Shown here: one piece after another, positions 28,286 through 28,433 of the stretch
Layout: each line of letters starts with the position of its first letter
Position numbering within the stretch: position 1 is the first letter of the stretch
NCBI RefSeq assembly: GCF_003334355.1
Contig: NZ_QOWP01000032.1
DNA: 40,572 nt
Origin: Escherichia coli
Lineage (GTDB): Bacteria; Pseudomonadota; Gammaproteobacteria; Enterobacterales; Enterobacteriaceae
Direction: 5' to 3' (one strand)
Notes under the pieces: model-generated
The model's database searches: none
The model's input: the letters and a program-made list of their open reading frames with translations, nothing else
Told to the model about the DNA's origin: nothing
Translations under genes and position numbers: made by a program

Positions 28286-28318
28286 AAAAAAGCCCCCGGA
28301 AGGTGATCTTCCGGGGGC
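28286..28318 (-). terminator. his operon attenuator terminator
   Basis: GCCCCCGGA ... TCCGGGGGC stem followed on the transcribed strand by a U run; lies between hisL and hisG. Confidence 0.8.
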
Positions 28319-28382
28319 TTTCTCATGCGTTCATGCACCACTGGAAGATCTGAATGTCTTCCAGCACACATCGCCTGAAAGA

Positions 28383-28433
28383 CTAGTCAGGATGATGGTG
28401 ATGATGGTGGTGTTTAAATTGAACGCGTGTCAT
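28383..28433 (-). CDS. hisL: his operon leader peptide
   Basis: Minus-strand reading gives MTRVQFKHHHHHHHPD followed by a stop: seven consecutive His codons. Confidence 0.9.
   Translation of the reverse strand: MTRVQFKHHHHHHHPD

Follow-up and report, generated by a model that had tools for sequence, protein, structure and literature searches.

We found that the interval 28286-28433 of the window (the whole 40,572-base stretch of Escherichia coli DNA analysed here) belongs to the control region of the histidine operon. With a probability of about 0.97, the element is the E. coli hisL leader together with the ribosome-mediated transcription attenuator of hisGDCBHAFI, encoded on the minus strand; the coordinates given in the preliminary description of this DNA fit it, but the strand had been left unstated, and read on the plus strand the interval shows nothing notable. 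We observed the leader open reading frame (ORF), the run of His codons, six pairing segments with mutually exclusive pairings, the terminator, a match to an Rfam family and identity to K-12. The element is already known: it is a full member of a known family, its sequence is the same as the K-12 reference, and textbooks have used the K-12 his attenuator as a model since the late 1970s. No evidence contradicting the ribosome-mediated attenuator model was encountered in the leader analyses.

The hisL reading frame and its upstream signals

The following features precede or overlap the leader ORF and the pause site:

28506..28520, minus strand: A/T-rich tract AAAATATATAAAAAA, just upstream of the -35 hexamer, a candidate UP-element-like sequence that is the same in K-12
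28472..28501, minus strand: putative hisLp promoter (-35 TTGCTT at 28501..28496, 18-nt spacer, -10 TAGGTT at 28477..28472)
28434..28464, minus strand: leader 5'UTR of 31 nt, with the presumed +1 at A 28464
28433..28383, minus strand: hisL leader ORF of 16 codons, ATG at 28433 and TAG at 28385..28383
28412..28392, minus strand: run of seven His codons, segment A (the sensor), which pairs with segment B when no ribosome covers A
28391..28374, minus strand: his pause hairpin (CCUGA, 8-nt loop, UCAGG), the inner part of A:B, invariant in 60 leaders
U(-1) 28363, G(+1) 28362 and G(-10) 28372, minus strand: his transcriptional pause site, assigned by sequence identity

The hisL frame shows 100% nucleotide identity to its K-12 counterpart b2018, and its product, MTRVQFKHHHHHHHPD (minus-strand translation, ended by the TAG stop), is the same peptide as in K-12. 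As the preliminary description claimed, the leader peptide contains seven consecutive His codons, which read CAC CAC CAT CAT CAC CAT CAT on the minus strand (28412..28392). This is the sole run of at least four consecutive His codons in the six frames of the whole window, and the chance expectation for seven in a row is about 2e-6 per window of this size (at about 2/64 per codon). At least 4,702 complete genomes of E. coli contain the exact 51-nt ORF. A megablast search with these 51 nt matched 4,965 genomes, compared with 5,424 for the longer leader query described below, most likely because the 28-nt search word fails on alleles like that of O157:H7, which carries a central C-to-G change; the shortfall is thus most likely an effect of the search word, with the gene not missing.

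Natural variants of the peptide were also seen. In O157:H7 (1644-1694 of that locus) Gln replaces the first His, leaving six His, and one genome of Trabulsiella odontotermitis (1170-1345 of its locus) carries ten consecutive His codons. In several genera the peptide starts one codon later or differs at positions 2-3. Segments B-F are unchanged in all of these variants.

The pause hairpin has its arms at 28391..28387 and 28378..28374, which is -29 to -12 when counted from the pause site, and is followed by GCGAUGUGUGCU and then G(+1). The hisL pause has been described as having a hairpin between -30 and -11 and a G-10 Y-1 G+1 consensus, as depending on the hairpin and as being enhanced by NusA (PMC9291695). 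Judged by its letters, the hairpin with the G-10/U-1/G+1 site downstream of the leader stop is identical to that studied pause sequence.

The control region had been called complete. The leader and attenuator indeed lie within 28286-28433, but the promoter and 5'UTR (~28520..28434) fall outside, as do the final three bases of the T tract. The -35 and -10 hexamers of the putative hisLp match the consensus at three of six positions each. Its assignment depends on position and on identity to K-12, the latter being the real argument, and its placement fits the +1 deduced from published numbering. In that numbering, DnaA boxes lie at +46-56, +126-134 and +187-195 (PMC10989985), and all three coincide with DnaA-box matches of at most two mismatches only if +1 is 28464; we therefore placed +1 there, which implies a terminated leader RNA of ~181 nt. 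A simple promoter/terminator scanner run on 28100-28800 reported nothing. We regard this as a probable miss by the tool, presumably because each hexamer has only three of six matches and because the maximal stem, through A.U pairs, consumes the T tract and leaves ATTGCGCG.

The same boxes bear on an additional layer of regulation proposed for E. coli K-12, a 'DnaA-dependent riboswitch': DnaA would bind the leader RNA at 'rDnaA boxes', take part in setting the attenuator conformation and be needed for attenuation (PMC10989985), adding to the ribosome-mediated mechanism rather than replacing it. In dnaA mutants his expression is reported to be ~4- to 37-fold higher, an effect that requires the stem-loop region of hisL, and binding is backed by RIP evidence (PMC10989985); the boxes exist in the window, at 28419-28409, 28339-28331 and 28278-28270, because it is identical to K-12 across this region. 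However, each box has two mismatches to TTWTNCACA, and the leader shows no enrichment of matches of this kind: we counted 7 in 230 nt, against 4.3 +/- 2.1 in shuffled sequence, with 13% of shuffles reaching 7. Over the whole window, the rate is 5.0 per 230 nt. The claim of a DnaA riboswitch is itself worded with 'possible' and 'might', and an earlier Salmonella study, cited in the same paper, put the dnaA effect down to gene dosage of hisR, the tRNA-His gene (PMC10989985). No sequence feature demands a DnaA layer, and we consider it a tentative and rather unlikely addition. Still more doubtful, indeed very improbable, is a second function of the ~181-nt leader RNA (28464..~28284) or of the HisL peptide, as a trans-acting sRNA or peptide or as a DnaA-binding RNA. 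If true, a DnaA-binding leader RNA would couple histidine biosynthesis to the replication initiator, a link that is tentative in PMC10989985.

Alternative pairings and the terminator

Downstream of the His codons, the attenuator consists of the following segments, of which A has been listed above:

28383..28373, minus strand: segment B, partner of A (terminating) or C (read-through) in the pair list from folding; 100% paired in 60 leaders
28367..28356, minus strand: segment C, partner of B or D in constrained folds
28350..28341, minus strand: segment D, partner of C, or of E to give the antiterminator; invariant in 60 leaders
28321..28308, minus strand: segment E, the terminator 5' arm AAAGCCCCCGGAAG, held by D in the read-through state
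28302..28289, minus strand: segment F, the terminator 3' arm CTTCCGGGGGCTTT, which pairs with E
28291..28283, minus strand: T tract TTTTTTATT, read from the sequence and overlapping the end of F

A G+C-rich terminator hairpin with a U tract before hisG, as the preliminary description had it, was found at 28321..28283. The hairpin proper (28321..28289) has 14 bp, is rich in G+C and closes on the loop ATCAC before the T tract; the terminator ends 46 nt upstream of the hisG ATG at 28237, on the same (minus) strand. Folded alone, the E:F hairpin has an energy of -27 to -30 kcal/mol. For the 161-nt leader as a whole, the minimum free energy (MFE) is -68.4 kcal/mol, compared with -36.8 +/- 3.9 kcal/mol in dinucleotide shuffles (z = -8.1), and none of 200 shuffles was as stable. 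The duplex energies of B:C, C:D and D:E (-11.9, -12.7 and -12.0 kcal/mol, respectively) are nearly isoenergetic, that of E:F being -27 kcal/mol.

Constrained folds of the nascent RNA revealed two sets of pairings, B:C with D:E and A:B with C:D and E:F, that are mutually exclusive. The ribosome was represented in the nascent folds by masking everything to 15 nt beyond the A-site His codon. In nascent RNA that ends before F and carries no ribosome, A:B and C:D formed and E was unpaired. With the ribosomal A site on any of His1-His6, B:C and D:E formed in the same RNA, so that E was sequestered. With the ribosome at the stop codon, where it covers B, C:D formed once D had emerged and E:F formed at full length.

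The full-length leader at equilibrium folded into the terminator under every mask, whether the ribosome was set on each His codon or at the stop, and no switch was seen. The folds of the nascent transcript do display the alternatives, with a kinetic argument still needed at intermediate lengths; at some of these, the MFE of the stalled-ribosome state favours C:D. Since equilibrium folding does not discriminate between the states, the switch must be kinetic and set by the order of synthesis. The attenuator decision thus has to be kinetic, as in the literature model.

Conservation of the leader and the his operon in its window

We scanned the whole window against Rfam 15 (4,227 families, gathering thresholds), which gave three matches in all. 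His_leader (RF00514) was matched at 28407..28284 on the minus strand with 131.6 bits, against a gathering score of 49, an E-value of 8.7e-22 and model positions 1-126 of 126. It is the sole family in the leader interval, and no T-box or other riboswitch was found in this whole-window scan of 4,227 families. Regulators of another class, namely a T-box riboswitch, a HisR-type repressor operator or Rho-dependent termination, might be considered here, as PMC9413887 places Gram-positive his genes under T-boxes or HisR. But the host is E. coli, and His_leader is the only Rfam family at gathering score in the leader interval. The canonical U tract, moreover, indicates that the terminator is intrinsic and therefore not of the Rho type. 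The Rfam scan together with the U tract refutes these classes for practical purposes, and we give them hardly any credence.

An alignment to the K-12 hisL-hisG leader region, which the preliminary description had proposed as its check, contained no substitution within 28525..28242. The promoter region, 5'UTR, hisL, pause site, attenuator and the Shine-Dalgarno sequence of hisG all lie in this interval, which matches E. coli K-12 MG1655 at 100% identity. Over 511 nt the alignment has five substitutions, of which four (28676, 28590, 28583 and 28526) are upstream of the promoter and one (28241) lies between the hisG Shine-Dalgarno sequence and ATG, where the base is G here and in O157:H7 and C in K-12. 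A 452-nt query made up of the hisL-hisG leader and the intergenic region upstream of it had matches in 5,424 of 5,426 complete E. coli genomes, everywhere annotated 'His leader region', hisL and hisG; among the matches listed for this query, two strains were 100% identical. The 99-nt attenuator core is present in 5,423 complete E. coli genomes. Describing the element as the textbook his attenuator was thus appropriate, in view of the RF00514 match, the 100% identity to K-12 and the RefSeq annotation 'hisL / His leader region' in other strains.

To compare enterobacterial leaders, we collected loci from a species-level genome collection with a DNA pattern of seven His codons followed by Pro-Asp-TAG. 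This yielded 76 loci, 59 of which were complete and distinct, and an alignment of 60 rows from about 20 genera; the pattern biases segment A, not B-F. The genera carrying it include Escherichia, Salmonella, Citrobacter, Enterobacter, Klebsiella-related Raoultella, Kluyvera, Kosakonia, Leclercia, Lelliottia and others, and further Atlantibacter, Trabulsiella, Mangrovibacter and Siccibacter. Across the 60 leaders, the non-consensus fraction was 0 in B and D, 0.024 in C, 0.027 in E and 0.014 in F, and about 0.25 in the loops of C:D and E:F. The terminating structure was pairable at 99.4% and the read-through structure at 97.7%, compared with 37-57% in controls slid by 1-3 columns, and RNAalifold recovered A:B, C:D and E:F unguided. 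The only recurrent substitution in the switch segments, A to G in C in 17 of the 60 leaders, gives a G.U pair with both B and D.

Compensatory double changes numbered zero in the 60 leaders, and the RNAalifold covariation term was -0.5 kcal/mol. Covariation is absent because the stems are invariant, and shuffle controls are uninformative because the alignment columns are invariant. The alignment supports conservation and is consistent with the helices, being no proof of structure. That the stems and some unpaired stretches are invariant across genera is sufficiently explained by the need of each segment to pair with two partners.

We also weighed a chance combination of a short ORF with a hairpin, or a decayed relic of an attenuator. 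Short ORFs and hairpins are common, and the scanner mentioned above saw no promoter or terminator, points that we counted as no real support. Against them stand the Rfam E-value of 8.7e-22, the folding z of -8.1, the sole run of at least four His codons in six frames, the 100% identity to K-12, the presence in 5,424 of 5,426 E. coli genomes, the Enterobacteriaceae-wide conservation and the intact operon downstream. A chance or relic origin is refuted by the Rfam match, folding, identity, conservation and the intact operon, and its probability is close to nil.

The eight structural genes hisGDCBHAFI (21204..28237, minus strand) directly follow the leader at full length and without internal stops. 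They and the hisG ribosome-binding signal are as follows:

28250..28246, minus strand: hisG Shine-Dalgarno sequence GAGGA, as read from the sequence
28237..27338, minus strand: hisG, 299 aa, K-12 length
27332..26028, minus strand: hisD, 434 aa, K-12 length
26031..24961, minus strand: hisC, 356 aa, K-12 length
24961..23894, minus strand: hisB, 355 aa, K-12 length
23894..23304, minus strand: hisH, 196 aa, K-12 length
23304..22567, minus strand: hisA, 245 aa, K-12 length
22585..21809, minus strand: hisF, 258 aa, K-12 length
21815..21204, minus strand: hisI(E), 203 aa, K-12 length
21165..21192: hairpin CCGGGC-GCT-GCCCGG with A7 and T6 flanks, between the convergent hisI and wzzB

The operon had been called intact, and this holds: all nine ORFs have K-12 lengths, lack internal stops and are collinear with K-12. 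On the gene junctions the preliminary description was right in part. TGATGA, with a 1-nt overlap, is present at both hisC/hisB and hisH/hisA, but the 4-bp overlaps said to occur elsewhere are confined to a single junction, hisD/hisC (ATGA). The remaining junctions are a 5-nt gap at hisG/hisD (TGA-TCGCC-ATG), a 1-nt overlap at hisB/hisH (TAATG), a 19-nt overlap at hisA/hisF and a 7-nt overlap at hisF/hisI (ATGTTAA). The hairpin at 21165..21192 is likely to act as a bidirectional intrinsic terminator common to hisI and wzzB.

Nucleotide identity to MG1655 is 100% in hisL, 98.0% in hisG, 96.5% in hisD, 97.7% in hisC, 97.3% in hisB, 97.8% in hisH and 97.0% in hisA, and then 89.6% in hisF and 82.0% in hisI. 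This drop toward the O-antigen side has the look of a flank shaped by recombination or hitch-hiking next to the hypervariable O-antigen region, with a breakpoint probably in or near hisF.

From left to right, the window contains the end of an IS1, a 5'-truncated wcaM, an SDR gene, galF, a JUMPstart element, a rare O-antigen cluster, gnd, ugd, an epimerase gene and wzzB, followed by the his operon, yefM-yoeB, yeeZ, yeeY, an STnc240 match, plaP, tsuAB, sbcB and dacD. Its identity to E. coli strain PEC414 is 100% over 1-4258 and 99.99% over 4219-25400, the extent of the PEC414 locus compared. Positions 1-1016 comprise the last ~60 nt of an IS1A copy and then the 5'-truncated wcaM pseudogene (100% identity to PEC414). 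In PEC414 this IS1 lies between a truncated wcaD and a truncated wcaM, and most of the colanic-acid cluster therefore appears to have been deleted.

The JUMPstart element is at 3528-3566 (Rfam match). The O-antigen cluster (3500-15900) was found at 99% identity or more in 9 of 5,426 complete E. coli genomes, and RefSeq carries it without a serogroup name. Its genes encode a GT4 glycosyltransferase, gmd, a GDP-mannose mannosyl hydrolase, manC, manB, an epimerase/dehydratase, a DegT-type aminotransferase, a flippase-like protein, and GT2 and other glycosyltransferases. The first glycosyltransferase gene of the cluster (GT4 family, 3661-4778) encodes 380 aa in PEC414 and is split here into ORFs of 218 and 156 aa: at 4298-4304 PEC414 has A7 and the window A6, which gives a frameshift and a stop at 4315-4317. 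Within the same gene, the (AAAGAC)6.7 repeat at 4219-4258, encoding (Lys-Asp)n, has six copies fewer than in PEC414. The split could be a genuine pseudogene, a phase-variable-like state or a homopolymer sequencing error. Between ugd and wzzB, on the opposite strand, lies a gene for a 334-aa NAD-dependent epimerase (18763-19767, minus strand), at a place where K-12 has no gene; from its N-terminal motif, we take the product to be UDP-glucuronate 4-epimerase-like.

On the other side of the operon, a presence/absence polymorphism of yefM-yoeB adjoins the his promoter (28564-28586, 28576-29223). Homology to O157:H7 ends exactly at 28575 and resumes at 29224, with ~205 nt of unrelated sequence in between in O157:H7. 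Position 28575 is the centre of an 11-nt inverted repeat, GCTAAGAGGAC / GTCCTCTAAGC, which is perfect in K-12 and has one mismatch here, at 28583. The upstream region is of the window type in 4,213 of 5,424 genomes, and a soil-clade strain also lacks the yefM-yoeB toxin-antitoxin pair. Further along, between yeeY and yoeI/plaP, Rfam gives a match to the enterobacterial sRNA STnc240 at 31146-31220 (plus strand; 68.2 bits, gathering score 55), with a terminator-like hairpin. Strain 120899 is identical to the window in the leader region and has a different, O115-type O-antigen cluster. At window position ~37146 it carries an extra ~1.9 kb (37146-39031 of its own locus), in which an ISL3-like ISEc53 transposase lies beside a frameshifted ClbS/DfsB gene.

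Regulatory model and known systems

We describe the attenuator as it would operate here; what is said about pausing, about the kinetic order in which the RNA folds and about how the system responds to His-tRNA is drawn from literature on the same or near-identical E. coli and Salmonella sequences. Transcription would start ~31 nt upstream of hisL, and RNA polymerase would pause at 28363 behind the pause hairpin until a ribosome begins to translate hisL. When charged tRNA-His is plentiful, the ribosome would pass the seven His codons to the TAG and cover A and B; C:D could then pair, leaving E free for F, and E:F with the U tract would terminate transcription before hisG. When charged tRNA-His is scarce, the ribosome would stall on the His codons and cover A only, so that B:C and D:E would form, the terminator would be blocked and the polymerase would enter hisG. 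If the leader is not translated, A:B, C:D and E:F would form and transcription would again be expected to terminate.

The published model of the same leader has E:F form under efficient translation, B:C and D:E form when translation is slow on the His codons, and A:B lead to E:F in the untranslated leader (PMC4046918). Experiments on the identical K-12 leader and the near-identical one of Salmonella have established that read-through rises under limiting charged tRNA-His and that transcription terminates if it is abundant or if the leader is not translated (PMC4046918; PMC10989985), and deletion of hisL or of the stem-loop region deregulates the his operon in E. coli (PMC10989985). This locus adds nothing to attenuation biology, and the element is useful as an annotation anchor only, setting the minus strand, the start and the intactness of the his operon. 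The hisL leader match also identifies the window as an E. coli chromosomal segment extending from the colanic-acid remnant to sbcB.

The his attenuator of K-12 and Salmonella enterica is like that of the window in its A-F segments, pause, terminator, place upstream of hisG and hisGDCBHAFI gene order, and K-12 differs from the window only by polymorphisms outside the leader. Seven regulatory codons in a row and six pairing segments (A-F) make up the his leader, compared with two Trp codons and four segments in the trp leader, and the two form separate Rfam families. The principle of a short ORF rich in cognate codons is common to his and to the trpL, pheL, leuL, thrL and ilv leaders, and in these attenuators, as in his, a pause hairpin serves to couple the ribosome to the polymerase, and the antiterminator helix excludes the terminator helix and vice versa (PMC1183508, PMC9291695). 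According to PMC9413887, his T-box leaders of Firmicutes and Actinobacteria resemble the his attenuator in sensing the charging of tRNA-His and in choosing between terminator and antiterminator in the 5' leader. Unlike the his attenuator, T-boxes work without a leader peptide, by direct binding of uncharged tRNA.
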